Positions 9,161-63,281 of a DNA stretch of 64,000 bases are shown piece after piece. The translations under genes and the position numbers were made by a program. Origin of the DNA: an uncultured Candidatus Saccharibacteria bacterium (lineage in GTDB: Bacteria > Patescibacteriota > JABMPQ01 > JAQVVF01); contig CAZNOH010000001.1 in the NCBI GenBank assembly GCA_964574655.1, forward strand, positions 201,852 through 265,851, read 5' to 3'. The first letter of the stretch is position 1, and each line of letters starts with the position of its first letter. The notes below the pieces were generated by a model. That model saw only the letters and a program-made list of their open reading frames with translations. It was not told the DNA's origin and ran no database searches.

Positions 9161-9180
9161 ATTGTTCTTTACAACAAGAG

Positions 9181-9250
9181 GATCCACCTACGCTTGCGAG
9201 CTTTGGTGGATAAGTCCGCCTTCGTCCTGTGGGACTTTGGCGGACAAGGG
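9181..9250 (+). repeat. GGCGGACAAG hairpin/leader element, copy A
   Basis: ccacc..ggtgg and gtccgcc..ggcggac stems, followed by a purine-rich SD and an ATG. Homologous copies occur at 12211-12262, 12396-12447 and 17885-17950. Confidence 0.5.
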
Positions 9251-9260
9251 AGAAAAGGAA

Positions 9261-13444: not shown

Positions 13445-13534
13445 ATATTGATGTTTGGACGATAATCATTCTTAGAGGAAAGATCTTTAGAAAATTATTT
13501 CGTGATAGTAGGAACCCAAAAAAGGAGGGAGAGA

Positions 13535-14299: not shown

Positions 14300-14455
14300 T
14301 TTGTGTCGGGGACTAGTATACCGGCAGGCAGGTATGCCCAATGGGGTGGGTAGTGAAGTTTTAGAATTTTTATTCTAATATCGGGGAATAGTATATCGGT
14401 AGTACGCATGTACGGGGTACATGTAGGGGGAGTCCAATTCTCCCTTCCCCGAAAG
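14300..14455. repeat. GC-rich tandemly duplicated structured element (ncRNA candidate)
   Basis: Two diverged copies of about 75 nt (tcggggactagtataccggcaggcagg... and tcggggaatagtatatcggtagtacgc...). Contains the perfect hairpins catgtac-ggg-gtacatg and ggggag..ctccc(t)tcccc. Not coding. Confidence 0.3.
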
Positions 14456-44929: not shown

Positions 44930-46405
44930 ATGAGAAAGTTTTTAGTAACAAGTTTTTTTTGTGCTGTGTTTTTGTTTTGCTTTTGTGGAATAACGAAGGC
45001 GGCGGAATGGACGGATGTGACAGGAAATCTAACTGGAACATCTATTCATTCTATGATTCAGGCTTCTGATGGTTCTATTTACGCTGGAGGCTATGAGGGT
45101 GATGAGCATGCTAGAGTTTGGAGATATTCGGCTGGTTCTTGGGCTGATATTACTGGAATTTTATCTGGATATCGTGTTTGGTCTCTGGTTCAATCTTCTG
45201 ATAGTTCCATATATGCAGCTAGTGCTGATAAGGTTTGGAGATATTTAGCAGGTTCTTGGACAGATACTGGAACATTAAATGGTGCTTCTGTTGTTTCTCT
45301 GATTCAAGCTTCTGATGGTTCGATATATGCTGGAGGTGAAACTAATGTTGGTTCTGCTAGAGTTTTGAGATATTCAGCTGGTTCTTGGACGAATACTGGA
45401 TTGAGTGATGCTTTTTATGTTTATTCTCTGGTTCAAGCTTTTGATGGTTCGATATATGCTGGAGGTAAAACTAATGTTGGTTCTGCTAGAGTTTGGAAAT
45501 ATTCAGCTGGTTCTTGGACGAATGTTACCGGTGTTTTAGTTGGAACGAGTGTTAATTCTTTGATTCAAGCTTCTGACGGTTCGATATATGCTGGAGGTTA
45601 TAGTGCTGGTGATGGTAGAGATTATGCTAAAGTTTGGAAATATTCAGCTGGTTCTTGGACAGATTTTACTGGAACTTTATCAGGATTTGATATTGGTTCT
45701 TTTATCCAAGCTTCTGATGGATCTATATATGTTAGTTCCGATGATAAAGTTTGGAAATATTCAGCAGGTTCTTGGGTCGAGATTACTTATGGAACATTAG
45801 ACGGAAATTTGTTGAGTCCTTTGATTCAGGTTTCTGATGGTTCGATATTTGTAGGAGGTAGTAATTATTATGTTGCCAAAGTTTGGAAATATACTGTTAG
45901 TCAAGAAGAGCAAGAGCAGGAGCAAGCACAACAAAATCTAGAATCAGGTGACAAAATCATTTTAGAATCAGCCTTGAATCAGCAAACAATTTCCGGCCAA
46001 GATCTAACAATCAGCTTTACAAAGCTTCCAACCAAATTAACTAAAAACAGCGCGTATTGGATGAAATGGAATCAGCTAAGCAAGTATCCAAACAAGACAT
46101 TCTTAAAGAATTGGAAATTAAAGACTAATCTATACAAATACAAAGTCAAGAAAAGCTCTCAGAAATACAAGATCAAAGTATCATTCAAATTCACTAAGAA
46201 GCAATTAAAGAAATACTTGAAGAAAAACAAATTGGCGACAAAATCTAATATTACTTTGAAATACAAACAAGGAACATCTTCTTGGAAAAACTTTACTTCT
46301 GTCTTTACTGATGCCAAGCTAATTAAAAAGGACAAGAAATTTATTGTTAAATACTTTACGCATTATCCGGTTAAGACTCAATATTTTGCGATTGGAGTGA
46401 AATAG
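44930..46405 (+). CDS. Secreted tandem-repeat (beta-propeller-like) protein with a Lys-rich C-terminal domain
   Basis: A signal peptide, then about 9 copies of a roughly 40-aa repeat (VWKYSAGSWT[DN]xTG..SLIQASDGSIYAGG), a QEEQEQEQ linker and a basic tail. Confidence 0.5.
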   Translation: MRKFLVTSFFCAVFLFCFCGITKAAEWTDVTGNLTGTSIHSMIQASDGSIYAGGYEGDEHARVWRYSAGSWADITGILSGYRVWSLVQSSDSSIYAASADKVWRYLAGSWTDTGTLNGASVVSLIQASDGSIYAGGETNVGSARVLRYSAGSWTNTGLSDAFYVYSLVQAFDGSIYAGGKTNVGSARVWKYSAGSWTNVTGVLVGTSVNSLIQASDGSIYAGGYSAGDGRDYAKVWKYSAGSWTDFTGTLSGFDIGSFIQASDGSIYVSSDDKVWKYSAGSWVEITYGTLDGNLLSPLIQVSDGSIFVGGSNYYVAKVWKYTVSQEEQEQEQAQQNLESGDKIILESALNQQTISGQDLTISFTKLPTKLTKNSAYWMKWNQLSKYPNKTFLKNWKLKTNLYKYKVKKSSQKYKIKVSFKFTKKQLKKYLKKNKLATKSNITLKYKQGTSSWKNFTSVFTDAKLIKKDKKFIVKYFTHYPVKTQYFAIGVK

Positions 46406-47930: not shown

Positions 47931-48692
47931 ATGCGAAATAAATTAATAGTTGGCAATTGGAAAATGAATTTAACTTTGGAAGAAGCTCGAAGGTTGACTT
48001 TGGATGTTAGGCAAGGATTAACAAATTTAAGTGAAAAAGTGGAAGTTGCAGTTTGTCCTTCCTTTGTTCACTTGGCTAATGTTCATTATCAATTGCCTTC
48101 TAGTATAAAATTAGGGGCTCAGGATGTGTTTTGGAAAGGAAATGGAGCTTATACTGGCGAGATTTCTTGTGATCAACTTTTGGATTTAGGCTGTTCTTAT
48201 GTAATTGTTGGTCATTCTGAAAGAAGAAAAAATCTGAAAGAAACAGATGTTATAATTAACGATAAAGTCTTAGAATGTTTGAGAAAAGGTTTGAAGCCAA
48301 TAATTTGTGTTGGAGAAACAAAAGACGAAAAAGAAAAAGGAATGACAGAGGAAAAAGTGACACAGCAAGTTGAAGTAGCTTTAGAAGGTGTGAAAAGTAA
48401 GGATGTCGTGAATGTAACAATAGCCTATGAACCAATCTGGGCAATAGGATCAGGAAATTCTGCTGAACCATCCGATGCTCAAGCTGTAATTTTTAGAATA
48501 AGAGATATTTTGAGAAATAATTATTCAGAAAAAGAATCAGAAATGATAAGGATTTTGTATGGGGGAAGTGTAGATCCGCAAAATGTTGCGTCTTTTGTTT
48601 TGGAAAAAGATATTGATGGCGTGTTGGTTGGTGGAGCGAGTATTAAAGCTAATGAATTTGTGGGAATTGTAAAACAGGTTTTAAAAATCTAA
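47931..48692 (+). CDS. tpiA: Triosephosphate isomerase
   Basis: VGNWKMN and IVGHSERR, with the AYEPIWAIGSG motif. Confidence 0.9.
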   Translation: MRNKLIVGNWKMNLTLEEARRLTLDVRQGLTNLSEKVEVAVCPSFVHLANVHYQLPSSIKLGAQDVFWKGNGAYTGEISCDQLLDLGCSYVIVGHSERRKNLKETDVIINDKVLECLRKGLKPIICVGETKDEKEKGMTEEKVTQQVEVALEGVKSKDVVNVTIAYEPIWAIGSGNSAEPSDAQAVIFRIRDILRNNYSEKESEMIRILYGGSVDPQNVASFVLEKDIDGVLVGGASIKANEFVGIVKQVLKI

Positions 48693-48838
48693 TGTCCAAG
48701 AAACAAGAAACAAACAAATCTCAAATTAAAATAACCAATTACCAAACTCGTCGTCGAAGGGTTTGATTATTGGTTATTGAATATTGGAATTTGTTTGTAT
48801 TTTGTATCTTGGTTATTAAATCTTATTTATAAATCATT

Positions 48839-49678
48839 ATGATAGTTTCATCACAAATCTTGTTAAAAAAGGCACAGCAAGGTCATTATGCAATTGGTGC
48901 TTTTAATACTTCTGATTTAGAAATTACAAAAGGAATTGTGGTAGCAGCTGAAGAGTTGAATGCGCCAATAATTTTGCAGACTTCTGAAGGCGAAATAAAG
49001 CATGCAGGATCTGAAGTATTTTTTGATTCAATGAAAATTTTTGCTGAGAAATCAAAAGCACAAATTAATTTAAATTTAGATCATGGAAAAAGTTTTGAAA
49101 TGTGCAAATGGGCAGTAGATAGCGGTTATAATTCTGTAATGATTGATGGATCTAGATTATTTTTAGATGAAAATATAAAACTAACAAAACAAGTCGTTGA
49201 TTACGCGCATTCTAAAAGCGTAGTTGTTGAAGGCGAGATTGGTCTTGTTCCTACTCCTAGCAAAGGCGAAGATGTTAGAATTTTAAAAGCTGATTCAGTT
49301 GAATGCAAAAAATTTATAGAAGAAACTGGTGTTGATTTTTTAGCAGTTGGCATTGGTAATGTTCATGGTGAAAATAAAGGTCAGCCAGTTTTGGATTTTG
49401 AAAGATTAAAAGAAATTAAAGAAGTCGTTGATGTGCCTTTAGTGTTACATGGCGGATCAGGTATTTCTGATGATGATATAAAAAAAGCTGTGTCTTTAGG
49501 AATTTGTAAGATTAATGTTAATACGGAATTGCGTCAGGCTTTTGCTAAGGCTTTGCGGGAAACTTTGGAAGATAAAGATGTAATCAAGCCTTATGATATT
49601 ATGGATCCGGTTGAGGATCGTATTAAAGAAGTTGTAATGAAAAAGATTGAAATTTTTGGAAGTAAAAATAAGGCGTAG
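48839..49678 (+). CDS. fba: Class II fructose/tagatose-bisphosphate aldolase
   Basis: GAFN, LDHG and VLHGGSG motifs. Confidence 0.85.
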   Translation: MIVSSQILLKKAQQGHYAIGAFNTSDLEITKGIVVAAEELNAPIILQTSEGEIKHAGSEVFFDSMKIFAEKSKAQINLNLDHGKSFEMCKWAVDSGYNSVMIDGSRLFLDENIKLTKQVVDYAHSKSVVVEGEIGLVPTPSKGEDVRILKADSVECKKFIEETGVDFLAVGIGNVHGENKGQPVLDFERLKEIKEVVDVPLVLHGGSGISDDDIKKAVSLGICKINVNTELRQAFAKALRETLEDKDVIKPYDIMDPVEDRIKEVVMKKIEIFGSKNKA

Positions 49679-50196: not shown

Positions 50197-50288
50197 TCTA
50201 CCTGGCTTTAGCCAAGGGGTTGGAGAGCCTTAGCTCTCATTTCTTGTGAACTAAAGTTCATGAACCCCTTGGCTAAAGCCAGGTAGAA
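50197..50288 (+). repeat. 92-nt three-hairpin palindromic element, copy 1 (ncRNA or MITE-like candidate)
   Basis: A perfect 26-bp outer inverted repeat (ttctacctggctttagccaaggggtt / aaccccttggctaaagccaggtagaa) encloses two inner hairpins, gagagc-ctta-gctctc and tgaact-aa-agttca. Confidence 0.6.
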
Positions 50289-50303: not shown

Positions 50304-51350
50304 ATGACCAAAACAAATTTTTTAGAATTGATAAATTTTTTACAAAAAAACCATAAAGTCTATGGGCCGGTTTTGGATAGGTCTGGCAGATTATTAGTAA
50401 AAGAAATTAAGGATCCAGAAAAAATAATTTTGAATGGCAGATTAACACATTATTCTTTTAAAAATTTATTTTTGCCATCTCATGAAACTTTATTTGATTA
50501 TGATCATCAAAAATTGAAAGAGCCAAATTTAAGCTATAAAAAACAAGCAATTGTTGGAATGACAATATCCGATTTGGAGGCTTTAGAATTATATGATCAA
50601 GTATTCGTAAAAGATCCATATTATCAGGAAAGACGAAGACAGACTTTAGTTATTGGATATAGTTTAGCGGGTAAAAAAAGTTTTTCTGAGGAATTAATTT
50701 ATGAACAGCAGTTTGAAGAAGATATTTTAGAACATGTGAAGTTTGATGTGTTTTGCGAATTGCGCGAATCTGGAACGAATGACACTAATAATTCTAGTGA
50801 TTTTTGTAAGGTTTTTGCTGGATCGGAGAATGGAATTAAGATTTTGGATGGATTTGGGTATAAGGATTATGAAAATATAAAATATGTTGGGCCAATTAGA
50901 GAACCCGCCTTTGCTTCCGAAGAGGCTGTGGTGGGCAAGGGAGGGTTGGATAAGACAATGATGGCGGTTTATAATAAAATGAGAAAAGGCTATGCCAAAA
51001 AAGTTTGGGAAGATATTGGAAAAAGGTGTATAGAGTGCGGACAATGTACTCTGGTTTGTCCAACTTGTTATTGTTTTAGAATTGATGATGAGCCAAGCTT
51101 GGATAGAGGAAAAGGCAAAAGAGTAAGATGCTGGGATGCTTGTATGTATCATGAATTTTCGGAAATTTCTGGAAAGACAAGATTATTAAAAAGTACTGAA
51201 CAGAGGATGTGGTTTTGGTTTTATCATAAATTTGTTAGAATTCCAGAAAAATATAAAATACCAGGATGTGTTAAATGTGGAAGATGCTCTCGTGTTTGTC
51301 CGGTTGATATTGATTTTATGAAGGTGCTACAAGACATTTTGAAGAGTTGA
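50304..51350 (+). CDS. Group-3 [NiFe] hydrogenase (sulfhydrogenase-type) beta subunit, a 2x[4Fe-4S] protein (AsrA-like)
   Basis: CIECGQCTLVCPTCYC and CVKCGRCSRVCP cluster motifs. Gene context with the gamma and NiFe subunit genes. Confidence 0.6.
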   Translation: MTKTNFLELINFLQKNHKVYGPVLDRSGRLLVKEIKDPEKIILNGRLTHYSFKNLFLPSHETLFDYDHQKLKEPNLSYKKQAIVGMTISDLEALELYDQVFVKDPYYQERRRQTLVIGYSLAGKKSFSEELIYEQQFEEDILEHVKFDVFCELRESGTNDTNNSSDFCKVFAGSENGIKILDGFGYKDYENIKYVGPIREPAFASEEAVVGKGGLDKTMMAVYNKMRKGYAKKVWEDIGKRCIECGQCTLVCPTCYCFRIDDEPSLDRGKGKRVRCWDACMYHEFSEISGKTRLLKSTEQRMWFWFYHKFVRIPEKYKIPGCVKCGRCSRVCPVDIDFMKVLQDILKS

Positions 51351-51467: not shown

Positions 51468-52310
51468 TTGATGTTTAATCCATATCAAACAAAATTGGTT
51501 GTAATAAAAAGAGTAATTAAAGAATCTTCTGATGTAAAAAGATTTGTTTTGGAATTTGAAAATAAGTTAGATAAAGAAAATTTTGATTTTATACCAGGAC
51601 AGTTTATTAAGGTTTCAATTCCAGGCTTATGCGATGCGCCGTTTACTTTTGGTTCTAGTCCAAAAAATAGAGATAATTTTGAAATTGCAGTTAGGGGAGT
51701 TGGAAATTTGACCAATTTTCTGAATAGAATGCAAATAGGACAAAAAATAGGAATAAGAGGACCGTATGGAAATGGTTTTCCAATGGATTTAATTAAGAAA
51801 AGAAATACTTTGATTGTGTCTGGCGGTTGTGGTTTTGTGCCTTTTAAATCGATGATAGAAGATTATCTAATTGACAAAAAAAGTTATAAATCTAAGTTCC
51901 AAATTTTTTACGGAGCGAGGTCTTTTGACGAGCTGTTGTTTAAAAGAGATTTTGAAAAATGGGAAAGTAGCGGTATAGATTTAAAGATAACTGTTGATAA
52001 GAATGATGAGAAGTGTGATATTTCTAAATATGGTTGCAATGTTGGTTTGGTAACTGAATTAATTAAAAATGAGGATTTGGTAGAAAAACCAGTTGTCTTG
52101 GTTTGTGGTCCGTCAATAATGGTAAAATTTGTAGTAATGGAATTAGATAAACTGTCTATCCCCCATTCTGATATTTTTGTTTCGTTAGAGGGAAGAATGG
52201 AATGCGGAATAGGAGTGTGTGAGCATTGCGCAATTGGTCCTTATTATGTTTGCAAAGATGGACCAGTGTTTAGTTGGGATAAGATTGAATGGATTCCAAA
52301 CATAGTTTGA
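51468..52310 (+). CDS. Hydrogenase gamma subunit: FAD/NAD(P)-binding oxidoreductase with a C-terminal [2Fe-2S] (AsrB/PyrK-like)
   Basis: FNR-like fold (RxYS-type motif, GGCG) and a C-terminal CGIGVCEHCAIG. Confidence 0.6.
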   Translation: MMFNPYQTKLVVIKRVIKESSDVKRFVLEFENKLDKENFDFIPGQFIKVSIPGLCDAPFTFGSSPKNRDNFEIAVRGVGNLTNFLNRMQIGQKIGIRGPYGNGFPMDLIKKRNTLIVSGGCGFVPFKSMIEDYLIDKKSYKSKFQIFYGARSFDELLFKRDFEKWESSGIDLKITVDKNDEKCDISKYGCNVGLVTELIKNEDLVEKPVVLVCGPSIMVKFVVMELDKLSIPHSDIFVSLEGRMECGIGVCEHCAIGPYYVCKDGPVFSWDKIEWIPNIV

Positions 52311-52411: not shown

Positions 52412-53695
52412 ATGTGTTTAACAATGCCTGGAAAAGTAAGTAAAATTAATGGAAACTTTGCGATAGTTGAGGGAAATTTTGGATTGAGAAGTGTCAATAT
52501 TATGGCATTAGGAAAAATTAAGATTGGTGATTGGCTTTTGGCGACAACTGGTTTAGCTGTTAAAAAAATTAATGAAAACGAGGCGCAGGAATTAATTGAT
52601 TTATTGAAAAGTCATGATGCGGTTGACAGCAACAAGATAGATAAAAAATTATTGAATGTTTTAGAAAATGCAAGAAAAAGGAATTTGAATAGAGACGAGA
52701 TTGTTTTTTTATTAAGTTTAAAAAAAAAGAAAGATATTGAGGCTTTGTTTTCAGAAGCTGATGTGATTAGAAAAAGTTATTTAAAAGATTTTATATGCAT
52801 TCATGGCATAATTGAATTTTCAAATTATTGTGAGAATAATTGTTCATATTGCGGATTGAGATTTGAAAATAAGAAATTAAAAAGATACAGAATGTCTTTT
52901 AAGGAGATTGTTGAAGTAATTGATGAAGCAGTAAATAAAATAGGTTATAAAATGTTGGTATTGCAGAGCGGAGTTGATAAAGGATGGAGCGATGCGAAAT
53001 TAATTGAATTAATAAAATTGATTAAAAAAAAGCATCGAGTTTTTATTCTGATAAGTATTGGTGAACGGAGTTTGGAATGTTATAGAAAGATGAAAAAAGC
53101 AGGAGCTGATGGAGTTTTGTTTAGATTTGAGACAGCAAATAAAGATCTTTATCACAAATTGCATTTATCTAAGACATTGAAAGGCAATTTTAAGAAGCGA
53201 TTAAAATTAATTGGTGAATTAAAGAAAATGGGTTATTATATTTCTTCAGGGTCAATGATTGGATTACCTGGTCAAACAATTGGTGATTTGGCAAACGATG
53301 TTTTAATGATGAAAAAGTTGAAAGTAGGAATGGTCTCAATGGGTCCCTTTGTCCCATGTAAAAATACTCCATTTGAGAAAGAAAAAAAAGCTGAAACGAT
53401 GTTGAGTTTGAAAATGATAGCTATTTGTCGTATTTTAATGAAAGAAGCAAGGATACCAATTACTTCTGCTTTAGAGACAATTGGAGGCGAAGAGATTAGG
53501 AAAAAAGGATTGAGCTGTGGTGCGAATTCATTGATGTTCAATCTAACACCGCAAAAATATAGAAAAGATTATAAAATTTACAATAACAAATTTTATGGGA
53601 GAAACAAGAAATTAGAGAGAGCAGCTTTATTTCAGAATGAAGATAGCTGGAGGATGATCGAGCAAGAGTTTAGAAAAAAAATAGATAAATTTTGA
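52412..53695 (+). CDS. Fusion protein: N-terminal HypC/HupF-type [NiFe]-hydrogenase chaperone domain (about 75 aa) plus a radical-SAM HydE [FeFe]-hydrogenase maturase
   Basis: Starts MCLTMPGKV..GDWLL..G.A..KINENEA (the HypC signature with Cys2). The rest aligns along its length with HydE: IIEFSNYCENNCSYCGLR, KRYRM, LQSG, ETAN, GSMIGLPGQT, MGPFVP, CGANS. Confidence 0.7.
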   Translation: MCLTMPGKVSKINGNFAIVEGNFGLRSVNIMALGKIKIGDWLLATTGLAVKKINENEAQELIDLLKSHDAVDSNKIDKKLLNVLENARKRNLNRDEIVFLLSLKKKKDIEALFSEADVIRKSYLKDFICIHGIIEFSNYCENNCSYCGLRFENKKLKRYRMSFKEIVEVIDEAVNKIGYKMLVLQSGVDKGWSDAKLIELIKLIKKKHRVFILISIGERSLECYRKMKKAGADGVLFRFETANKDLYHKLHLSKTLKGNFKKRLKLIGELKKMGYYISSGSMIGLPGQTIGDLANDVLMMKKLKVGMVSMGPFVPCKNTPFEKEKKAETMLSLKMIAICRILMKEARIPITSALETIGGEEIRKKGLSCGANSLMFNLTPQKYRKDYKIYNNKFYGRNKKLERAALFQNEDSWRMIEQEFRKKIDKF

Positions 53696-53699
53696 GTAT

Positions 53700-55070
53700 A
53701 TGCTAATAATAGATCAGAGAAAAATTAAAGAGTTTTTAGATAATAAGAAAAACGTAGATGAAGATGAGGCAAAGCAGATTGTTAAAAAAGCAAAAAAAAA
53801 GAAAGGTCTTAATTTAGCAGAAGTGGCGATTTTATTGAATGTTAATGATGAGAAGTTAATTGCTGAAATGTTTAAGGCGGCGATTGAAATAAAAAAAGCG
53901 ATATATGGGAATAGATTGGTTCTATTTGCGCCACTATATATTTCGAACTATTGCGTTAATGATTGTGAATATTGTAGCTTTCATATTCGAAACAAAGCGT
54001 CAAGAAAAAAATTAACCTTGGATGAGGTTAGAAAACAAGTTGAAATTTTGGAAGATATGGGCCACAAGAGACTGCTTTTAGAATTTGGCGAAGATCCCAT
54101 TAATAATCCAATTGATTATGTGGTTGATGTAATAAAAACAATATATAATGTAAAAAGGGGTAATGGATCGATTAGAAGAGTGAATATTAATATAGCAGCA
54201 ACAACCGTCGAAAATTATAAAAAAATAAAAGAAGCTGGAATTGGAACTTACCAGCTTTTTCAAGAAACTTATCATCAACCAACCTATAAAAAATTGCATT
54301 GCGGTCCTAAAGCTGACTATGAACGGCAAATTACGGCTTTAGATCGAGCTTTTCAAGCGGGAATTGATGATTTAGGAATCGGTGTTTTATTCGGACTTTA
54401 TGATTATAAATTTGAAGTTTTAAGTTTGCTAATGCATGCCCAATATCTGGAAAAGAAGAATGGCGTAGGGCCTCATACAATTTCCGTACCGAGATTTCAG
54501 TCTGCAATGACTGTTGATTATAAGTCTAGATATAAAGTTTCCGATAAAGCTTTTTTAAAACTAGTAGCGATCTTGAGAATGGCAGTCCCATATACGGGAA
54601 TAATAATGTCAACCAGGGAAACTCCAGAGATTCGTAGAAAAGCGTTTGAAATTGGCGTATCACAAACTAGTGCAGGATCAAAAACTGCGCCAGGAGGATA
54701 TCTGAAAAAATCAAAAACTAGTGATTTGCAACAATTTTCTTTGCATGATAAAAGGTCACTGGATGAAGTTGTTTGTGATATTTGCGGGCTTGGATATTTA
54801 CCAAGTTTTTGCACAGCATGTTATCGTGTCGGGCGGACAGGCGATCAATTTATGGAATATGCAAAATCAGGAAAAATTCAGAGATTTTGTCAACCTAACG
54901 CGATAATGACTTTAAAGGAATATTTAGTTGATTATGCATCAAAAGATACAAAGAAAGCAGGTGAAGAATTGATTAATAGTGAATTAAAAAAGATGGATGT
55001 GAAAAAAAGAGCTTTGTTTAAGAGAAAGCTAAAATTGATCGAACAAGGAAAGAGGGATATATATATTTAG
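53700..55070 (+). CDS. Radical-SAM HydG (tyrosine lyase producing CO/CN ligands), [FeFe]-hydrogenase maturase type
   Basis: N-terminal PLYISNYCVNDCEYC (CX3CX2C) and a C-terminal CTACYRVGRTGDQFMEYAKSGKIQRFC, which is an exact CX2CX22C auxiliary-cluster motif. That motif separates HydG from ThiH. Confidence 0.7.
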   Translation: MLIIDQRKIKEFLDNKKNVDEDEAKQIVKKAKKKKGLNLAEVAILLNVNDEKLIAEMFKAAIEIKKAIYGNRLVLFAPLYISNYCVNDCEYCSFHIRNKASRKKLTLDEVRKQVEILEDMGHKRLLLEFGEDPINNPIDYVVDVIKTIYNVKRGNGSIRRVNINIAATTVENYKKIKEAGIGTYQLFQETYHQPTYKKLHCGPKADYERQITALDRAFQAGIDDLGIGVLFGLYDYKFEVLSLLMHAQYLEKKNGVGPHTISVPRFQSAMTVDYKSRYKVSDKAFLKLVAILRMAVPYTGIIMSTRETPEIRRKAFEIGVSQTSAGSKTAPGGYLKKSKTSDLQQFSLHDKRSLDEVVCDICGLGYLPSFCTACYRVGRTGDQFMEYAKSGKIQRFCQPNAIMTLKEYLVDYASKDTKKAGEELINSELKKMDVKKRALFKRKLKLIEQGKRDIYI

Positions 55071-55191: not shown

Positions 55192-55866
55192 ATGAGCAGC
55201 AATGATGGTTTGATTGAAGCAGCAAGATTTTCGTGGAATTGTTGTCCAGAAAATAGAGTTCTTTGCGATGGATTATACGGCTTTGTTGGAGGAAATGGCG
55301 GGCATGATGTTGCATGGATTCGAGGTCAACTAAAAAGTCTTTATTCATATTTTTATTATCTGTTGATTGCTAGGCAAAATGGAATTTCTGATCCTTTTGA
55401 TTTGCGAGTTGTTCAGGCACATTGGATTGGCAATGATTTGTTGAGGGTTGTGAAAGCTAGCGATGTTAAAGAATTATTATCAGCTACTAAAGAATTGAGC
55501 GCATTGCCGAGAGAAAAAGAAACGATGATGAGGTGGTTATTGAGCAAGCTTGTAAAATTAGGATCTTATCCTCATCATAGTTTTTATGCAACTGTTTATG
55601 AAAAGTTGAATCCCGCACTTGTCCGTCAAGGAAAAAGATGTTTTATAGACTGCGGCAAAGTGTTGGAATTGGAAGACGATCATTTTCTTATCGAAGTCAA
55701 TGGAGTTACGAGAAAATGCGGTTATGGTTTTCTGAAAGGAAAGATTGAAGTTGGAGATTTGGTTTTTATCCATTTGAATGAGGGTTGCAGGGTTGCAACT
55801 TTAGATGAAAAAACAAAATTAGATGATTGGTTTGTTGCTACAGAATGTACATTAAGGTTGCTTTAA
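55192..55866 (+). CDS. Hypothetical hydrogenase-cluster protein with 9 Cys; the C-terminal part has a weak HypC-barrel-like pattern
   Basis: Strong SD aaaggaggagaaag. Position between hydG and the NiFe small-subunit gene. No P-loop, so it is not HydF. Confidence 0.4.
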   Translation: MSSNDGLIEAARFSWNCCPENRVLCDGLYGFVGGNGGHDVAWIRGQLKSLYSYFYYLLIARQNGISDPFDLRVVQAHWIGNDLLRVVKASDVKELLSATKELSALPREKETMMRWLLSKLVKLGSYPHHSFYATVYEKLNPALVRQGKRCFIDCGKVLELEDDHFLIEVNGVTRKCGYGFLKGKIEVGDLVFIHLNEGCRVATLDEKTKLDDWFVATECTLRLL

Positions 55867-55923: not shown

Positions 55924-56688
55924 ATGGAACAACAAAAATTAAAAGTAGCAATGGTTTCTTTGACTTCCTGCGAAGGATGTTATTTTAGCTTGCTTGATTT
56001 AGGAAATGAATTTTTAGAAATTGCTGACAAAATTGATTTAGTTAAATTTCGATTATTTGAAGAAAAAGAGCATTCTGAAAATGAAAAATATGATCTTGCG
56101 TTTGTGGAAGGCAGTCCGATTTCTAAAGAGAATTTTGATAAGTTGATTAATTTGAGATTGAGAACTAAAAAATTAATTATTTTGGGTGGATGTGCTCATA
56201 CTGGTGGAACATATGCAATGCGAAATCATACTGACAAAAAGAAAGCTTGTAAATATGTTTATCCTAAAACTAATAAAAAAGTTTTTAATCCAAAAATTTT
56301 AGAACTTTCTAAAGTTGTAAAAATTGACGGAATTATTCCAACTTGTCCGGTTAATCCTAGAGAATTTGTTAGATTTATGTCTTTTATCTTGAATAGTTTA
56401 ACGTTTAAAATTGTTGAAAGGCCAGTCTGTCATGAATGCCAATTAGCAGAGACTCCTTGTTTATTAAAAATGGGATTGCCTTGTTTTGGGCCAATGGCTC
56501 TTGGAGGTTGTGATGCGCCTTGTCCTCAAGCAGGAATGCCTTGTCAATTATGTCGTGGACCAATGAAAGAGATTGTTTGGGAAAATTTTGAAAAGAAAAT
56601 GAAAGAAATAATGGGTGCTGAAGTTTGGGAAAAAGATTATCATGAAATACTCGAGATTTTTAATGTGAAGGATAAAATTAATTGTTAA
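55924..56688 (+). CDS. [NiFe] hydrogenase small subunit, group 3 type (delta subunit; no Tat signal)
   Basis: N-terminal KVAMVSLTSCEGCYFSLLD, and more FeS Cys in the C-terminal half (CPVNPREF.., CHECQ, CFGPM..GGCDAPCP). Confidence 0.75.
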   Translation: MEQQKLKVAMVSLTSCEGCYFSLLDLGNEFLEIADKIDLVKFRLFEEKEHSENEKYDLAFVEGSPISKENFDKLINLRLRTKKLIILGGCAHTGGTYAMRNHTDKKKACKYVYPKTNKKVFNPKILELSKVVKIDGIIPTCPVNPREFVRFMSFILNSLTFKIVERPVCHECQLAETPCLLKMGLPCFGPMALGGCDAPCPQAGMPCQLCRGPMKEIVWENFEKKMKEIMGAEVWEKDYHEILEIFNVKDKINC

Positions 56689-56722: not shown

Positions 56723-57052
56723 ATGGAAATTAAACAAGAGATTAAAAAACCAGAAGCTGTTAAAATAATTGTTGAAGATAACGGTAAAATTGTTGGCAGA
56801 GCTTATTTATATTTGATTAATAATGATTTGCATAAAGAGCCTTATGGATTGTTGGAGGATGTTTTTGTTGAAGAAAATCAAAGAGGAAAAGGAACTGGTA
56901 CGAAATTAGTTCAGGCAGTAATTGATGAAGCTAAGAAAAGAGATTGTTATAAATTAATTGCAACTAGTAGGAAATCAAGAGAGCAAGTACACGAATGGTA
57001 TTTGAAATTTGGTTTTGAAGATTATGGTTGTGAATTTAGGATGGAGTTATAA
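56723..57052 (+). CDS. GNAT-family N-acetyltransferase (small, 109 aa)
   Basis: Q/RxxGxG/A motif in NQRGKGTGTKLV. Confidence 0.5.
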   Translation: MEIKQEIKKPEAVKIIVEDNGKIVGRAYLYLINNDLHKEPYGLLEDVFVEENQRGKGTGTKLVQAVIDEAKKRDCYKLIATSRKSREQVHEWYLKFGFEDYGCEFRMEL

Positions 57053-57082: not shown

Positions 57083-58387
57083 ATGAAAAAAATAATAAAA
57101 ATAAATCATCTAGCTAAAATGGAAGGGCATGCTTCGTTTGAAGGCAAGATTTTGGCAGGAAGAATTTTAGAAGCGCATATTATTACAGAAGAAGGCGCAA
57201 GATTAATTGAGGGAACATTGGTAGGCAGACATTATTCTGAAGCGTCGACGATTACTTCCAGAATTTGTGGGATCTGTCCAATTGTTCATCATCTAACAGC
57301 TGTGAAAGCTTTGGAAGAATGTTTTGATGTTAAAGTCAGCTCTGAAACTATAATGCTTAGAAAAGTTTTGGAATTAGCGCAAATAATTCATAGCCATACT
57401 TTGCATCTTTTCTTTTTGTCTTTACCTGATTTTTTGAATTATGATGATACAAAAAAGATGGCAGGTAGATATCCTAATGAAGCGCAGATGGCAATTGATA
57501 TTCGGAAATGGGCGACTGATTTATGTTTAGTAATTGGTGGTAGAATTACACATCCTTTGACAAATATGGTAGGCGGATTTAGGAAATGGCCCGAAGAAGA
57601 AAATTTAGAAAAATTTTTAGATGGTTCTGGTGATATTTTGGAGATGGCATTAAAAATCGCCCAATTATTTAGAGATTTAGATTATCCAAAGTTTGATAAT
57701 CTAGGAAACTTTATTGCGTTATCAAATGATACTGAATATGCAATCTATGAAGGCGAAGTTAAAATTTGGGAGACAAAGAAAAATTTAGCTAAAAAAATAT
57801 TTGGCAAGCAAATGAAAGGAATAAGTGCAACGAAATTTATTAAGAAAATTAAAGAAATAGAATTGCAAAATGAATTGGTAAAAAGAGTGAAGTATAATGG
57901 AAAGTCTTTTTTTTGTGGAGCATTAGCAAGGATTAATATCAATAAATATCTGTTGAATGAAGAGTCTTCAAAATTTTTAGAAACAACAAATATTGATTTT
58001 CCAACAGATAATACTTTTTATAATGTTTTAGCTCAAGCTGTTGAGGTTATTCATTGTGTTGAAGAAATCAGAAATTTATTGAGAGAATTAAAGAAGATAA
58101 ATTGGTTGAAGGCTAAAAATACGAGTTTTAAAATTAAGGCTGGCAAAGGAGTGGCTGCAATTGAGGCGCCGAGAGGGACTTTGTATCATTATTATGAAAC
58201 TGATAAAGATGGATATATTAAAAACTGTAATATAATTACGCCAACAGCGCAGTTTTTGGCAAAATTAGAAGATGATTTGAGTGTGTTTTTATCTGATGTT
58301 AAAAATTTGCCGGATTTGGAAAGAAAAAATAAAATAAAAATGATGATAAGGGCGTTTGATCCGTGTATTAGTTGCGCTACGCACTAA
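57083..58387 (+). CDS. [NiFe] hydrogenase large subunit (alpha), ending at the Ni-site His with no C-terminal extension
   Basis: N-terminal RICGICPIVHH (RxCGxC) and C-terminal DPCISCATH followed directly by a stop codon. Confidence 0.85.
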   Translation: MKKIIKINHLAKMEGHASFEGKILAGRILEAHIITEEGARLIEGTLVGRHYSEASTITSRICGICPIVHHLTAVKALEECFDVKVSSETIMLRKVLELAQIIHSHTLHLFFLSLPDFLNYDDTKKMAGRYPNEAQMAIDIRKWATDLCLVIGGRITHPLTNMVGGFRKWPEEENLEKFLDGSGDILEMALKIAQLFRDLDYPKFDNLGNFIALSNDTEYAIYEGEVKIWETKKNLAKKIFGKQMKGISATKFIKKIKEIELQNELVKRVKYNGKSFFCGALARININKYLLNEESSKFLETTNIDFPTDNTFYNVLAQAVEVIHCVEEIRNLLRELKKINWLKAKNTSFKIKAGKGVAAIEAPRGTLYHYYETDKDGYIKNCNIITPTAQFLAKLEDDLSVFLSDVKNLPDLERKNKIKMMIRAFDPCISCATH

Positions 58388-58419: not shown

Positions 58420-58851
58420 ATGAAAAAACAAAATAGAAAAAAAATAAACAAGGATGTTACAGTCAGAAGTTTATCAGAAAAAATTGATAAGCGTTTTGAG
58501 CAAGTTGATAAGCGTTTTGATAAGATGATGAAAGTAATGGATAATAGATTTGGTGAGTTGTATAGTTTTTTACAAAAACACATGGTAACAAAAGAGGAAT
58601 TTAATGAAAGATTGTTGAAGTTGGAAAACAGAATTGAGAATATTGAACAAAATTATTCAACGAAGGATGATTTATTGAAAGTAAAAGATGAACTTTTGAC
58701 ATTAATGGATAAAATTATTAATGATTATAAAAAAGATAAACAAGAACATGCTTTTTTCAGTTATCATCTGGAAAGAATTGCAAAATTAGAATATCGGATT
58801 GATAAAATAGAGGGTAAGAAAGTTAAAGACTTAAAATTTACAAATGCATGA
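58420..58851 (+). CDS. Hypothetical coiled-coil protein
   Basis: 143 aa with heptad-like charged repeats. Confidence 0.35.
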   Translation: MKKQNRKKINKDVTVRSLSEKIDKRFEQVDKRFDKMMKVMDNRFGELYSFLQKHMVTKEEFNERLLKLENRIENIEQNYSTKDDLLKVKDELLTLMDKIINDYKKDKQEHAFFSYHLERIAKLEYRIDKIEGKKVKDLKFTNA

Positions 58852-59101
58852 CTTTCATGCGGCGGACAATTTATTAAAGATGGCACTTGAACATGCAAAG
58901 AAAAATAAACTGAGAAAAGTTGACAAAATTAAAATTGAATTAGGAAAATTTGTTGAGCATGGGCAAGAAATATTAGCAGATAATTTGAAATTTAATATTA
59001 AAATGTTGGCTAAAGGTACGATTGCTAAAAATGCAGAAATTGTTATTATTGAGAAACAAGGTGAAAGAGGCTATGAATTAGTAGAGATTGAAGGAGAATA
59101 G
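58844..59101 (+). CDS. Minimal HypA-like nickel metallochaperone lacking the zinc-finger domain
   Basis: MHDFHAADNLLKMALEHAKK parallels the HypA MHE-Ni site plus helix. The C-terminal YELVEIEGE parallels the HypA end. There are no Cys at all (HypA normally has CxxC..CxxC). Confidence 0.45.
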   Translation: MHDFHAADNLLKMALEHAKKNKLRKVDKIKIELGKFVEHGQEILADNLKFNIKMLAKGTIAKNAEIVIIEKQGERGYELVEIEGE

Positions 59102-59147: not shown

Positions 59148-60311
59148 ATGAATAAAAAAACAATCAAAGATATTGATGTCAAAAATAAAACAGTTTTAGT
59201 CAGAGCTGATTTTAATGTACCAATTAAAGATGGTAAGATTCTTGACGATTTTAAAATTAAAAAAAGCCTTGATACTATAAATTATTTGATTAAAAATAAT
59301 GCGAAAATTGTTTTGATGTCGCATTTGGGAAAGCCAAAAGGAAAGGTTGTTGAAGATTTAAGATTAGATTCGATTGCGAAAAGATTAAGTGAAATGTTAG
59401 AAAAAAAAGTTGAAAAATTAAATGACTGTATAGGGCAGGAAGTTAATGATAAGGTTAAGCAGGCGAAATTAGGTGATGTGATATTGTTAGAGAATGTTCG
59501 TTTTCATCCTGAAGAAGAGAAAAATGATCCAGAATTTGCTAAGAAATTGGCGAGTTTGGGAGAAATTTTTTGTGAAGATGGGTTTGGATCAGTACATCGC
59601 GCTCATGCATCTGTTTCAGGAATTGCTAAATTTTTGTCAGCTGTTGCAGGATTATTGTTGGAAAAAGAAGTTGATGTTTTGACAGAAGTTTTAGAGAAGC
59701 CAGATCATCCATATTTAGTGATTTTAGGTGGAGCAAAGATTTCAACAAAATTAAATTTGATTAATAAGCTAGCAAAACAGGCGGACAAGCTTTTGGTTGC
59801 AGGTGCATTGTCTAATACTATTTTTCTGGCGAATGGCGTGAATGTTGGCGGATCAATCGTGGAAAAAGAAATGCTAGAGCAAATTAAAAATACAGTTTTA
59901 AAAAATACTAACATTGATATTCCGATTGATGTAATTGTCGGAAAAGATAATGGCGATGGGACGAGAACTGTTGATATTGGGAATGGAATAAGCAGCGATG
60001 AATTTATTTATGATATTGGACCGAAAACAATTGATTTGTTTAAGAGAAAAATTGATAAAGCGAGATTAGTTGTTTGGAATGGGCCAATGGGAAAATTTGA
60101 GAATAAAAAATTTGCAAAAGGTACTGAGAATATTGCAAAAGAATTGGTAAGAGTTAAAAAAGCAGTTGTTGGCGGAGGAGAGACTTCAATGGCAATTCGA
60201 AAATTAGGCTTAGAAGATAAAATTTATTTTTTATCTACTGGTGGGGGAGCAATGCTGGAGTTTTTAGAGGGAAAACTAATGCCGGGAATAGAGTGCTTAT
60301 TAGATAAATAA
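59148..60311 (+). CDS. pgk: Phosphoglycerate kinase
   Basis: RADFNVP, and GGGA in the C-terminal domain. Confidence 0.95.
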   Translation: MNKKTIKDIDVKNKTVLVRADFNVPIKDGKILDDFKIKKSLDTINYLIKNNAKIVLMSHLGKPKGKVVEDLRLDSIAKRLSEMLEKKVEKLNDCIGQEVNDKVKQAKLGDVILLENVRFHPEEEKNDPEFAKKLASLGEIFCEDGFGSVHRAHASVSGIAKFLSAVAGLLLEKEVDVLTEVLEKPDHPYLVILGGAKISTKLNLINKLAKQADKLLVAGALSNTIFLANGVNVGGSIVEKEMLEQIKNTVLKNTNIDIPIDVIVGKDNGDGTRTVDIGNGISSDEFIYDIGPKTIDLFKRKIDKARLVVWNGPMGKFENKKFAKGTENIAKELVRVKKAVVGGGETSMAIRKLGLEDKIYFLSTGGGAMLEFLEGKLMPGIECLLDK

Positions 60312-60325
60312 AATTAATAATATTT

Positions 60326-61567
60326 ATGAAAATAATTAAGATTAGAGCCCGAGAAATTCTTGACTCAAGAGGTGAGCCAACTGTGGAAGTGCGTGTTGAT
60401 TTAGATGGCGGTAAATTTGGCATTGCTAGAGTTCCTTCTGGTGCTTCAACAGGAAAATATGAAGTATTAGAATTGAGAGATAAAGATAAAAAAAGATATG
60501 GCGGGAAAGGAGTGTTGAGAGCTTGCAAAAATGTTAATGATATTATTTCGCAAAGGCTGGTTGGATTATATGCAGATAAGCAAGAAAAAATTGATCGGAC
60601 TTTGATTGCATTAGATGGGACAAAAAATAAATCAAAATTAGGAGCAAATGCGATTCTTGGCGTGTCATTAGCATGTTGTGTAGCAGCAGCTAATTCTAAA
60701 GAAATCGAACTATATCAGTATATCGGCGAAATTTTTGGCAATGATAATTTTGTAATGCCGCAAGCATATTTTAATATTATCAATGGTGGAAAACATGCTG
60801 ACTCTGGATTAGATGTCCAGGAATTTATGATTGTGCCAAAAGCAGTTAATTTTTATGAAAAAGTGAGAGTTGGTTCAGAAATTTTTCATGCTTTGAAAGA
60901 TATTTTGCAAAGAAGAGAATATTCAATTAGTGTTGGTGACGAGGGTGGTTTTGCACCGAAATTAGATAGCAATGAACATGCAATTGAAACTATTTTGAAG
61001 GCAATCGAAGAGGCAGGATATAAGCCAGGAGCTGATGTAAATATTGCTTTAGATGTTGCTGCTTCTTCTTTCTATAGTAAGGAGAAGGGATATTGTTTGA
61101 ATTCTGGCAAGTGCATTGAATCAGATCATTTAATAGCGATGTTTTCGGATTGGATTAGCAAATATCCAATAAAAAGCATTGAAGATCCTCTCGCTCAAGA
61201 TGATTGGGAAGGTTTTAAAAAAATTACTGAAAAGTTAGGAGATAAAATTCAAATAATTGGTGATGATTTGTTTGTAACAAACATTGAAAGAGTAAAAAAA
61301 GGTATTGTTGAAAATTGCGCAAATTCTGTTTTGATAAAACCAAATCAAATTGGTACTTTGACGGAAACTTTTGAATGTATAAAATTAGCAAAATCAAAAG
61401 GCTATGCAACAATGGTTTCGCATCGTTCTGGCGAGACAACTGATACTTTTATTGCTGATCTTTGTGTTGGAACTAATGCCGCACAGATCAAGTCTGGTTC
61501 CTTGTCTCGTGGTGAAAGAGTTTGCAAATATAATCGGTTGATGGAGATTGAGGAGAAGCTTAAATAA
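60326..61567 (+). CDS. eno: Enolase
   Basis: ILDSRGEPTVEV, SHRSGETTD and IKPNQIGT motifs. Confidence 0.95.
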   Translation: MKIIKIRAREILDSRGEPTVEVRVDLDGGKFGIARVPSGASTGKYEVLELRDKDKKRYGGKGVLRACKNVNDIISQRLVGLYADKQEKIDRTLIALDGTKNKSKLGANAILGVSLACCVAAANSKEIELYQYIGEIFGNDNFVMPQAYFNIINGGKHADSGLDVQEFMIVPKAVNFYEKVRVGSEIFHALKDILQRREYSISVGDEGGFAPKLDSNEHAIETILKAIEEAGYKPGADVNIALDVAASSFYSKEKGYCLNSGKCIESDHLIAMFSDWISKYPIKSIEDPLAQDDWEGFKKITEKLGDKIQIIGDDLFVTNIERVKKGIVENCANSVLIKPNQIGTLTETFECIKLAKSKGYATMVSHRSGETTDTFIADLCVGTNAAQIKSGSLSRGERVCKYNRLMEIEEKLK

Positions 61568-61691
61568 TTTTTAATTTATAATTTCAAATTTTAAATAAAT
61601 TTTAAAATATTAATTTCAAAAATGTTTTTTGACGTTTGTTTTAAAATTATATTATTTAAAATTCAATTAAAATTTAAAATTTAAAATTTTT

Positions 61692-63281
61692 ATGATATAT
61701 AAACAAGCAGTTTTAATCATTTTGGATGGATTTGGTATTGCTCCACCAAGCAAGGGAAATTGTGTTATGCAAGCAAAGATGCCATATTATAATGAGTTAC
61801 TAAAAAATTATACTCATACAACAATTCAAGCTTCTGGCGAGGAAGTTGGTTTGCCATGGAGGGATATGGGAAATTCAGAAGTTGGTCATGGCAATTTGGG
61901 AGCAGGCAGAATTTCTTATCAAAGCTTGCCATTAATAAATACAGCAATTTTAAATAAGACTTTTTTTAAAAATGAAGCTTTAATGGGTGCGATTGAGCAT
62001 GTTAAAAAAAATAAGAGTAGTTTACATCTGATGGGTTTGGTCAGCTCTGGGGGTATTCATGCGCATATTGAACACTTGTTTGCGTTATTGAAATTAGCTA
62101 AGCAGAATAAAATAAAAAAAGTATATATTCATTGTTTTATGGATGGTAGAGATATGCCAAAGGATTCAGGCATAGATATGATTACAAAAATTGAAGAAGA
62201 AACGAGCGGATGGTTTTCAGTTGGCAAAATTGCAACAATGAGCGGTAGATATTATGTAATGGATCGTGATGATAATTGGGACAGAGTTGAAAAAGCTTAT
62301 AATGCGATGGTCGGAGCGTCGGAGCGTCGGAGCGTCGGAGCGTCGGAACCAAAGTTTTTTGCGAATCCAATTACGGCAATTAAAGATTCTTATGCTCACA
62401 AAGTTTATGATGAGCAGGTGGAGCCAGTTGTGATTGGAACAAAAGAAAAACCAGTAGCTAAGATTTCTAAAGGCGATTCAATAATATTTTTTAATTATAG
62501 AACTGATCGAGCCAGGCAAATTACTGAAGCTTTTGTTAGCGATGATTTTAAAGGTTTTAAACGTGAAAAAATAGAAGATTTATTTTTTGTTTGTTTTACA
62601 GAATATAAAAAAGGATTATGCAAAAATATTGCCTTTCAGCAGAAAGAAACTCCAAATGGTTTGTCAGAAACAATTAGCAAAAATAATTTAAAACAATTTC
62701 ATGTTGCAGAGACAGAAAAGTTTGCGCATGTGACTTTCTTTTTTAATTGCGGACAAGAAGAACCTTTTGCAGGAGAAATTCACAAAGTTGTAGCCTCGCC
62801 AAAAGTAGAATCTTATGACCAGAAACCAGAAATGTCGGCGCAAGGTGTAACTGAAGAAGTAATGAAAGCAATAAAAGAAAAATATAATTTTATCTTAATT
62901 AATTTCGCTAATCCAGATATGGTCGGGCATACCGGAAATATTTCTGCAACAATAAAGGGTTTGGATTTTGTTGATTCTTGTTTAAAAAAAATTGTGACAG
63001 AAGTTTTGAATAATAATGGCGTTGTAGTTTTGACAGCTGATCATGGTAATTGCGAGGAAAAAATTAATCTGCAAACTAGTAAATCAGAGAAACAACATAC
63101 TGCAAATCCAGTGCCTTTGATTTTAATTGGCAAAGGATTGGAACGAAAATCTGATAATACTGATTTGAGCTTGGAATCACCGACTGGAGCTTTAGCTGAT
63201 GTGGCGCCAACAATTTTAGCATTAATGGGAATTGAAAAACCGGTAGAGATGATAGGAATTGATTTAACTAAAGCGATATAA
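61692..63281 (+). CDS. gpmI: 2,3-bisphosphoglycerate-independent phosphoglycerate mutase (iPGM) carrying an internal GASERRSV repeat insertion
   Basis: iPGM motifs (LILDGFG, MGNSEVGH, ADHGN) and the full 529-aa length. Confidence 0.9.
   Translation: MIYKQAVLIILDGFGIAPPSKGNCVMQAKMPYYNELLKNYTHTTIQASGEEVGLPWRDMGNSEVGHGNLGAGRISYQSLPLINTAILNKTFFKNEALMGAIEHVKKNKSSLHLMGLVSSGGIHAHIEHLFALLKLAKQNKIKKVYIHCFMDGRDMPKDSGIDMITKIEEETSGWFSVGKIATMSGRYYVMDRDDNWDRVEKAYNAMVGASERRSVGASEPKFFANPITAIKDSYAHKVYDEQVEPVVIGTKEKPVAKISKGDSIIFFNYRTDRARQITEAFVSDDFKGFKREKIEDLFFVCFTEYKKGLCKNIAFQQKETPNGLSETISKNNLKQFHVAETEKFAHVTFFFNCGQEEPFAGEIHKVVASPKVESYDQKPEMSAQGVTEEVMKAIKEKYNFILINFANPDMVGHTGNISATIKGLDFVDSCLKKIVTEVLNNNGVVVLTADHGNCEEKINLQTSKSEKQHTANPVPLILIGKGLERKSDNTDLSLESPTGALADVAPTILALMGIEKPVEMIGIDLTKAI
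62311..62347 (+). repeat. Coding microsatellite: GC-rich 8-mer (tcggagcg) repeated 4.6 times
   Basis: tcggagcg x4 + tcgga, read directly from the sequence. It encodes GASERRSVGASERRSVGASE. Confidence 0.85.

Follow-up and report, generated by a model that had tools for sequence, protein, structure and literature searches.

Within the 64,000-nucleotide stretch analysed here (the window; part of contig CAZNOH010000001.1 from an uncultured Candidatus Saccharibacteria bacterium), sequence comparison confirms that the open reading frame (ORF) at positions 53,700 to 55,070 encodes a full-length, genuine HydG, and not the thiamine enzyme ThiH. Its start codon lies 4 nt past the stop codon of a gene in which a HypC domain is fused to a HydE-like radical S-adenosylmethionine (SAM) domain (hypC::hydE), and the two genes stand among those for the subunits of a NiFe hydrogenase. 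The best explanation for this arrangement is that the window HydG works outside any FeFe system, the pair forming a module that appears to fill the maturation slot in an operon for a group 3b NiFe hydrogenase. We consider it fairly likely that HydG and HypC::HydE make up a tyrosine-based radical SAM route which gives an Fe-CO/CN unit to the NiFe large subunit via the tethered HypC. A wider proposal is put forward tentatively, as possible rather than probable: that many candidate phyla radiation (CPR) bacteria and DPANN archaea, and some other anaerobes, assemble the Fe(CN)2(CO) moiety of the NiFe cofactor with no need for HypD, HypE, HypF or carbamoyl phosphate, through HydG (CO and CN- from tyrosine) together with HydE-HypC.

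We assign the protein to HydG rather than to ThiH or another BATS-domain enzyme because of the hidden Markov model (HMM) cut-offs, the end-to-end alignments with solved structures, and the conserved cluster ligands and dangler-iron histidine. The NCBIfam HydG equivalog TIGR03955 matches residues 4-454 with 612.7 bits against a cut-off of 312.15, and the ThiH model TIGR02351 reaches 295.6 bits, under its cut-off of 380, in a match that covers residues 16-368. When the protein was compared with the Protein Data Bank (PDB) using phmmer, T. italicus HydG (4WCX; 59.5% identical) scored 595.6 bits over query residues 4-455, that is, end to end, and C. hydrogenoformans HydG (4RTB) scored 396.4 bits, both above ThiH (7PD1), whose 189.9-bit match ends at query residue 370 and lacks the C-terminal region. 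ThiH shares with HydG the radical SAM/BATS core and the cleavage of tyrosine between C-alpha and C-beta, but it has no C-terminal cluster domain, whereas the window protein carries about 85 extra C-terminal residues with the cluster motif.

The original prediction, made from the DNA sequence alone, had already called this ORF HydG, pointing to an N-terminal radical SAM CX3CX2C motif and an exact C-terminal CTAC-(22 aa)-C spacing. Re-translation reproduces both motifs (C85/C89/C92 and C371/C374/C397), and the three C-terminal cysteines align with the same motif in 4WCX and 4RTB. A coincidental spacing finds no support, since both motifs occurred together in one of 20,000 composition-preserving shuffles of the protein. 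The prediction had also named the CX2CX22C motif the dangler-iron site; the motif is indeed intact, but the role was misassigned, since these cysteines hold the auxiliary [4Fe-4S] cluster and the dangler iron is held by a histidine and a free cysteine (PMC10114646). In T. italicus HydG the conserved histidine that ligates the dangler iron is His265 (PMC8855341). Its counterpart in the window protein is H246, which in the alignment falls on the conserved His of the 4WCX segment YHANHLE, the numbering being matched via the alignment and not from coordinates.

We then aligned 55 HydG sequences adjoining HypC::HydE genes with seven other HydGs, four of which come from solved structures or from loci with FeFe-type genes. 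The 62 sequences share 85 invariant positions, among them those of the six cluster cysteines and of H246, so the ligand conservation that the prediction had proposed to check is borne out. Only four columns (Q210, L286, A315 and F316) tell the module-linked HydGs from the others, and in a rough neighbour-joining tree the module-linked proteins group together in a single clade, separate from the FeFe-linked proteins but for one archaeal exception. Judged by these alignments, the encoded HydG is essentially canonical and active-looking, with an intact ligand set.

The fusion protein was characterised in the same way. Its HypC domain matches PF01455 over residues 1-65 with 56.5 bits (gathering threshold 28.5) and TIGR00074 with 51.6 bits (cut-off 48), and its HydE domain matches TIGR03956 over residues 88-395 with 280.7 bits, just over the cut-off of 254.6. 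Against solved structures the protein scores 250.9 bits with T. maritima HydE and 40.6 bits with TkHypC (2Z1C), and an AlphaFold2 (AF2) model has a pLDDT of 91.3 and a pTM of 0.91. This architecture recurs widely: PF01455 and PF04055 are both present in all of the best 120 homologues, 1986 homologues have E<=1e-10, and relatives are encoded in 405 stretches detected by scanning metagenomes. The comparisons that follow use 92 non-redundant fusion loci (1.07 Mb) from CPR bacteria, DPANN and other archaea, Thermodesulfobacteriota and Planctomycetota. The window protein begins MCLTMPGKV, and the Cys2 and Pro6 of this N-terminus are kept in 92/92 fusions.

With T. maritima HydE (3CIX/7O1O) the fusion shares the radical SAM triad (CX3CX2C; C140/C144/C147), but it adds the N-terminal HypC domain and exchanges residues of the active site. 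Four residues of TmHydE, R54, T134, R155 and T269, touch the CN ligands of its substrate (PMC11826987). In T. maritima numbering, R54 is replaced by His (window H131) and R155 by Gly (window G234) in all 92 fusions, and T134 by Phe, Tyr or Leu, again in 92/92 and mostly by Phe or Tyr (window L213); T269 is the sole CN-contact residue kept, as Ser or Thr. The fusions have gained the invariant residues Cys129, Phe239 and Glu355, with a family-specific C129-x-H131, and they keep the SAM cluster cysteines as well as M224, M291, R159, Q107, L157, E161, Y306 and K309. M224 and M291 are the residues between which a quantum mechanics/molecular mechanics study places the Fe(I) intermediates of HydE (PMC11826987). 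By these alignments the HydE pocket appears remodelled in the fusions, while HydG is essentially unchanged.

The neighbourhood of the module is conserved too. In a set of 108 loci all ORFs were compared with the proteins of the window operon, with HydA, HydE and HydF of the canonical cluster L024, and with E. coli HypA-F and HycI. A scan of genome contigs with HydG gave 18 loci. Downstream sequence of at least 1.5 kb is available for 64 fusion loci, and in 49 of them HydG comes directly after the fusion; among the 31 well-flanked loci genes for the NiFe large or small subunit are present in 21 and HypA in 13. Around the 92 fusion loci blastp (E<=1e-4) gave zero matches to HypD, HypE, HypF or HydF and none to an H-cluster HydA, the sole 'HydA' match being a ferredoxin-like segment (L018). 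The same search did pick up HypA, at identities of 27-32%, and HypB, at 48-50%. The canonical controls, L015 and L024, have hydA, hydE without HypC, hydG and hydF together (hydA-hydE-hydG-hydF). The HydG of L024 (10001-12049) is 682 aa long with an apparently duplicated N-terminal half, and blastp gives it two matches to the window HydG, at residues 3-251 and 53-454.

The operon order of the window is also found in loci of Falkowbacteria and other Patescibacteria, to which the nearest named relatives of the window belong as well. Peregrinibacteria have hypC::hydE-hydG-hyhS-hyhL, and Thermodesulfobacteriota a divergent hyhLSGB beside hypC, hypC::hydE and hydG. Three loci (L039, L041 and L069) read hypA-hypB-[hypC::hydE]-hydG, with the module in the usual hypCDE position, and in an Aenigmarchaeota genome and a Brocadiaceae metagenome-assembled genome the fusion-hydG pair stands alone. 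Unannotated neighbours in the Peregrinibacteria and archaeal loci gave only methyltransferase-like and PP2C matches in Pfam, and no Hyp.

For the window itself, every ORF of 50 aa or more was compared by blastp (E<=1e-4) with reference sequences of HydA, HydF and E. coli HypA-F; the matches were confined to operon genes, with no HydA, HydF, HypB, HypD, HypE or HypF across the 64 kb. Two further statements of the original prediction, that no FeFe hydrogenase lies nearby and that HydG is encoded inside a NiFe operon, agree with this result: the first is true of the window, and hydG has a mid-position in a co-directional group 3b NiFe hydrogenase cluster. Three points that lend this setting its significance go beyond the prediction: the fused gene upstream, the wide conservation of the pair as a module linked with NiFe genes, and the absence of hydE and hydG from this place in the closest relatives. 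Rfam and tRNA scans gave nothing relevant.

What the module might do can be framed by the chemistry of its relatives. HydG breaks tyrosine down to form CO and CN- on the dangler Fe, its released product being [Fe(Cys)(CO)2(CN)] (PMC10114646, PMC8855341, PMC11826987), and in HydE a 5'-deoxyadenosyl radical attacks the cysteine sulfur to give an Fe(I)(CO)2(CN)S species (PMC11826987). In the NiFe pathway Cys2 of HypC and Cys41 of HypD hold the Fe(CN)2CO unit and deliver it to the large subunit (PMC12134894). In the scheme that we propose, HydG would turn tyrosine, cysteine and Fe(II) into an iron-carbonyl-cyanide unit; the modified HydE domain would take up this unit and strip or remodel its cysteine ligand via the 5'-deoxyadenosyl radical; and Fe(CO)x(CN)y would then pass onto Cys2 of the tethered HypC, possibly aided by Cys129/His131, for insertion into apo-HyhL, all without the help of HypD, HypE or HypF. 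A second CN- from HydG could displace one CO, which would give the final set of 1 CO : 2 CN. The short HypA would add nickel, and C-terminal proteolysis would not be required, because HyhL ends at the last His of the cofactor motif.

Several results weigh against this scheme. The HydG product has 2 CO and 1 CN, and the NiFe site has 1 CO and 2 CN. The window is about 10% of a 654-kb contig, so HydA, HydF or HypDEF could lie in the other ~590 kb. In the fused HypC domains the position of E. coli HypC His51, which we take to be a conserved feature of the HypC family, is occupied by Ile, Thr, Ala or Ser; the standalone HypCs encoded beside fusions keep the equivalent of this histidine in 9/9 cases. 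The canonical side of the HydE pocket comparison comprises four sequences. Finally, the fusion has no adjoining HydG in 15 of the 64 loci mentioned above, and close relatives of the window operon have neither hydE nor hydG. A hydG pseudogene was ruled out for the HydG-less operons, unrelated genes filling the gaps.

These relatives locate the variation in one slot, between hyhG and hyhS. Loci L106, L107 and L108 share the synteny of the window, HyhL being 90% and HyhS 85-86% identical in L106 and L107, and HyhL 71% in the more distant L108; all three have a standalone hypC and a gene for a DUF6390 protein in the slot, and no hydE or hydG in the operon. Locus L109 has hypC::hydE-hydG without DUF6390, its HydG being 89% identical to that of the window, and the window operon has both. 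Since a search of 5.8 billion proteins returned, besides the window and L109, no HydG above 72% and no fusion above 61% identity, the L106-type organisms probably lack orthologues of HydG and of the fusion, and in some lineages the maturation of this type of hydrogenase probably does without the module. The module is a gain-and-loss cassette, not obligatory for this hydrogenase type, because the slot content varies among relatives and 15 loci have no adjoining HydG.

Other contents of the slot were recorded as well. Seven CPR loci (L049, L057, L071, L090, L096, L099 and L105; for example L096, 7524-15377) read hyhB-hyhG-[small class I methyltransferase-like]-hypC::hydE-hyhS-hyhL-hypA-pgk, with hydG absent within 10 kb, and the methyltransferase-like family recurs in nine loci. 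A DJ-1/PfpI gene follows hydG or the fusion, at the place of DUF6390 in the window, in L020/L026 (11432-11944), L089, L097, L102 and L104. The DUF6390 relatives lie at 8001-8672 in L106, 8001-8669 in L107 and 718-1383 in L108, and their invariant residues are C17, H77, H128, H129, C150 and H194, with C150 and H194 at HypC-like positions. The idea that DUF6390 is a hidden HypD was not supported, as the C-terminal domain resembles HypC and nothing in the PDB matches the N-terminal one.

Three other readings were weighed against the proposed route, along with the ThiH assignment. The first gives the module an auxiliary role: it would supply part of the cofactor, such as CO, or boost maturation, with HypCDEF encoded elsewhere and the cyanides made by HypE and HypF. 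Operons with a 90%-identical HyhL and no hydE or hydG fit such a role, as do the nine loci, for example in Thermodesulfobacteriota, where a standalone His-containing HypC adjoins the fusion, and the anaerobic source of CO in NiFe enzymes is stated as unresolved (PMC12134894). We nevertheless think it unlikely, since HydG yields CN besides CO and none of the 92 loci has HypD, HypE or HypF, even where hypA and hypB are present.

A canonical role is, in our judgement, rather improbable. Here HydG and HydE would mature an FeFe hydrogenase encoded elsewhere, with HydF elsewhere too, and neither the NiFe position nor the fusion would have any meaning for the NiFe enzyme. The close likeness to FeFe-linked HydGs (the 85 invariant positions, the four discriminating columns and the 59.5% identity to T. 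italicus HydG) speaks for it, as does the ~590 kb of contig outside the window, and in 10 of the 31 well-flanked loci the pair is not beside NiFe genes. Against it, HydF and H-cluster HydA adjoin in both control loci and are missing from the 1.07 Mb around the fusions; HydE is fused to a chaperone domain specific to NiFe enzymes, whose essential Cys2 is kept in 92/92; three CN-contact residues have been lost from the HydE pocket; and hypA-hypB-hypC::hydE-hydG operons exist.

Very improbable, too, is the reading in which some other client, such as an Fe-S subunit or a further enzyme, receives from the module a different product, organometallic or sulfur-containing, with the HypC-like domain as a generic carrier. 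The remodelled HydE pocket with its new invariant Cys-x-His and Glu, the loss of the His51 equivalent from the fused HypC, and the varied slot content (DJ-1/PfpI, methyltransferase, DUF6390) could be read in this way, but the CO/CN-forming site of HydG is fully intact, and the NiFe subunits and HypA/HypB are the only recurrent neighbours tied to a cofactor that requires CO and CN. A ThiH-type 2-iminoacetate synthase for the thiamine thiazole, with a chance Cys spacing, can be dismissed as having a negligible probability: many homologues are labelled '2-iminoacetate synthase' by JGI pipelines and ThiH is the next-best family after HydG, but the HMM cut-offs and the structure-based alignment refute ThiH and other BATS enzymes alike, the last 85 residues align with the cluster domain of 4WCX and 4RTB, and no thiG, thiS or thiF was recognised among the window ORFs, which were read by eye only.

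The proposed route can also be set beside the systems that it resembles. With the FeFe HydE/HydF/HydG system (4WCX, 4RTB) the module shares the length of HydG, its domain order, both Cys motifs, the dangler-iron His and a HydE-type gene directly upstream; it differs in that HydE is fused to HypC, no HydF or HydA was found in the window or the 92 loci, and the neighbours are instead NiFe subunits and HypA/HypB. With the HypCDEF pathway (E. coli, T. kodakarensis) it has in common the HypC domain with Cys2 and Pro6, HypA (and HypB in some loci), and, as the client, a standard large subunit of the NiFe kind in which both CxxC motifs are present. In the module loci, however, HypD, HypE and HypF matches are lacking, HypC is tethered to a radical SAM enzyme and has no His51 equivalent, and the ligands are proposed to come from tyrosine, not from carbamoyl phosphate. 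After HypX, which supplies CO to O2-tolerant NiFe hydrogenases under aerobic conditions, the module would be the second dedicated supplier of diatomic ligands to NiFe maturation, but HypX belongs to an unrelated family (formyl-THF/formyl-CoA decarbonylase) and is aerobic, whereas the enzyme here is a radical SAM protein that is sensitive to oxygen and belongs to obligate anaerobes.

The operon of the window, whose features are collected in Table 1, has the order hyhB-hyhG-[hypC::hydE-hydG-DUF6390]-hyhS-GNAT-hyhL-coiled-coil ORF-hypA(short), followed by pgk. From 50304 to past 59148 every gene is on the + strand, and the gaps are short. Just upstream of hyhB, at 50223-50238, lies a terminator-like hairpin, the only fitting site of this kind, and no convincing terminator was found inside the operon. 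The four structural subunits have sulfhydrogenase (group 3b) subunits as their best NCBIfam matches, all of them under the equivalog cut-offs, and on these matches the cluster is classed as a group 3b NiFe hydrogenase, which corresponds to the CPR 'hyd1' clade of PMC7304191.

Table 1. Features of the NiFe hydrogenase operon and of the HydG protein, in window positions.
Feature	Position	Strand	Basis and remarks
hyhB, beta (Fe-S, AsrA-like) subunit, group 3b NiFe hydrogenase	50304..51350	+	best NCBIfam AsrA, sulfhydrogenase ShyB/HydB; Pfam Fer4_22 101 bits
hyhG, gamma (FAD/NAD(P)-binding) subunit	51468..52310	+	NF006220 210 bits, ShyC 189; FAD_binding_6, NAD_binding_1, DHODB_Fe-S_bind
hypC::hydE fusion, 427 aa	52412..53695	+	HypC domain aa 1-71 (nt 52412-52624), HydE-like radical SAM domain aa 82-395
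hydG, predicted tyrosine lyase / Fe(CO)x(CN) synthon synthase	53700..55070	+	456 aa; TIGR03955 612.7 bits, 4WCX 595.6 bits
HydG radical SAM motif CVNDCEYC, C85/C89/C92 (CX3CX2C)	53952..53975	+	translation read directly
HydG H246, counterpart of dangler-iron ligand His265 in T. italicus HydG	54435..54437	+	4WCX alignment, invariance; role per PMC8855341
HydG C-terminal CX2CX22C, CTAC-YRVGRTGDQFMEYAKSGKIQRF-C, aa 371-397, C371/C374/C397	54810..54890	+	translation; auxiliary [4Fe-4S] ligands
DUF6390 protein	55192..55866	+	helical N-terminal domain and internal HypC-like domain (Cys150, His194)
hyhS, NiFe small (delta) subunit	55924..56688	+	sulfhydrogenase HydD/ShyD 127/122 bits, PF01058 67 bits
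GNAT acetyltransferase, 109 aa, between hyhS and hyhL	56723..57052	+	PF00583 66.4 bits
hyhL, NiFe large subunit	57083..58387	+	ShyA 232 bits, PF00374 117 bits
Coiled-coil ORF	58420..58851	+	between hyhL and hypA
Short HypA (85 aa), limited to the nickel-binding N-terminal half (MHxxH)	58844..59101	+	PF01155 36.9 bits (gathering 28.9), profile 1-69 of 112

HyhL carries the L1 motif RICGICPIVH at aa 60 and the L2 motif DPCISCATH at aa 426, whose His is the C-terminus of the protein, leaving no peptide to cleave; no maturation protease is encoded in the window operon. In the Peregrinibacteria/archaeal relatives L002, L005 and L014 the large subunit has a C-terminal extension and is accompanied by a protease-like gene. 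The GNAT gene is kept at the same position in L106-L109. The HypA of the window (MHDFH...) is without the zinc-finger half, overlaps the preceding coiled-coil ORF by 8 nt and is 55% identical to the 87-aa HypA of L020, and this form of 84-91 aa recurs across many CPR loci.

Glycolysis genes flank the operon, with tpiA and fba upstream (47931-49678) and pgk, eno and iPGM downstream (59148-63281). This synteny, kept in many CPR loci, suggests co-regulation of H2 metabolism with fermentation. The remaining content of the window consists of ribosomal protein, translation and glycolysis genes. At 44930-46405 (+) lies a gene for a secreted-looking protein of 491 aa with about eight propeller-like tandem repeats of ~30 aa ('SDGSIYAGG...VWKYSAGSWT') and then a lysine-rich tail. 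The segment 8000-14500 has a G+C content of 0.36-0.39, against about 0.31-0.33 elsewhere. Among its unusual ORFs are one of 605 aa at 9162-10979 that starts with TTG and those at 12692-13165 and 13502-14191; a tRNA-Pro (14381-14453) comes after them, and the segment may be foreign DNA inserted beside a tRNA. Every 2-kb bin of the window (1-64000) has a positive GC skew, and nearly all long ORFs are on the + strand, which places the whole window on one leading-strand replichore.

Parts of this arrangement have been seen before. Jaffe et al. 2020 described the CPR 'hyd1' group 3b clusters with the same four-subunit operon in Patescibacteria, and reported that a family encoded close to CPR group 3b hydrogenases, 'fam002', has some members with homology to hypC (PMC7304191). 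That family was not identified there as HydE or HydG, and the terms HydG, radical SAM and maturation have no occurrences in the paper (PMC7304191). Our full-text literature search, in which the 'hypE' query was swamped by 'hyper...', found no description of a HypC-HydE fusion, of HydG or HydE in NiFe operons, or of DUF6390. The HydG protein as such is known; it is its wiring with HypC::HydE and NiFe genes that is undescribed.

HydG and HydE are held to be exclusive markers of FeFe maturation, and public pipelines label them so: the NCBI names for these genes are 'FeFe hydrogenase maturase HydG/HydE'. The NiFe cofactor is in turn held to need HypCDEF, and a 2025 review of this cofactor, in which HydG goes unmentioned, calls the CO ligand's origin under anaerobic conditions the most pressing open question (PMC12134894). 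HypC::HydE and HydG beside NiFe structural genes offer a concrete candidate route to this ligand. If the proposal is true, maturation would have a third, hybrid pathway, the NiFe carbonyl ligand would have a defined source under anaerobic conditions, and hydE and hydG matches in metagenomes need not imply an FeFe hydrogenase. The module would also provide a compact two-gene maturation cassette for the heterologous production of NiFe hydrogenases, and it would help explain how the ultra-small, biosynthetically poor cells of CPR bacteria and DPANN archaea can afford an active NiFe hydrogenase.

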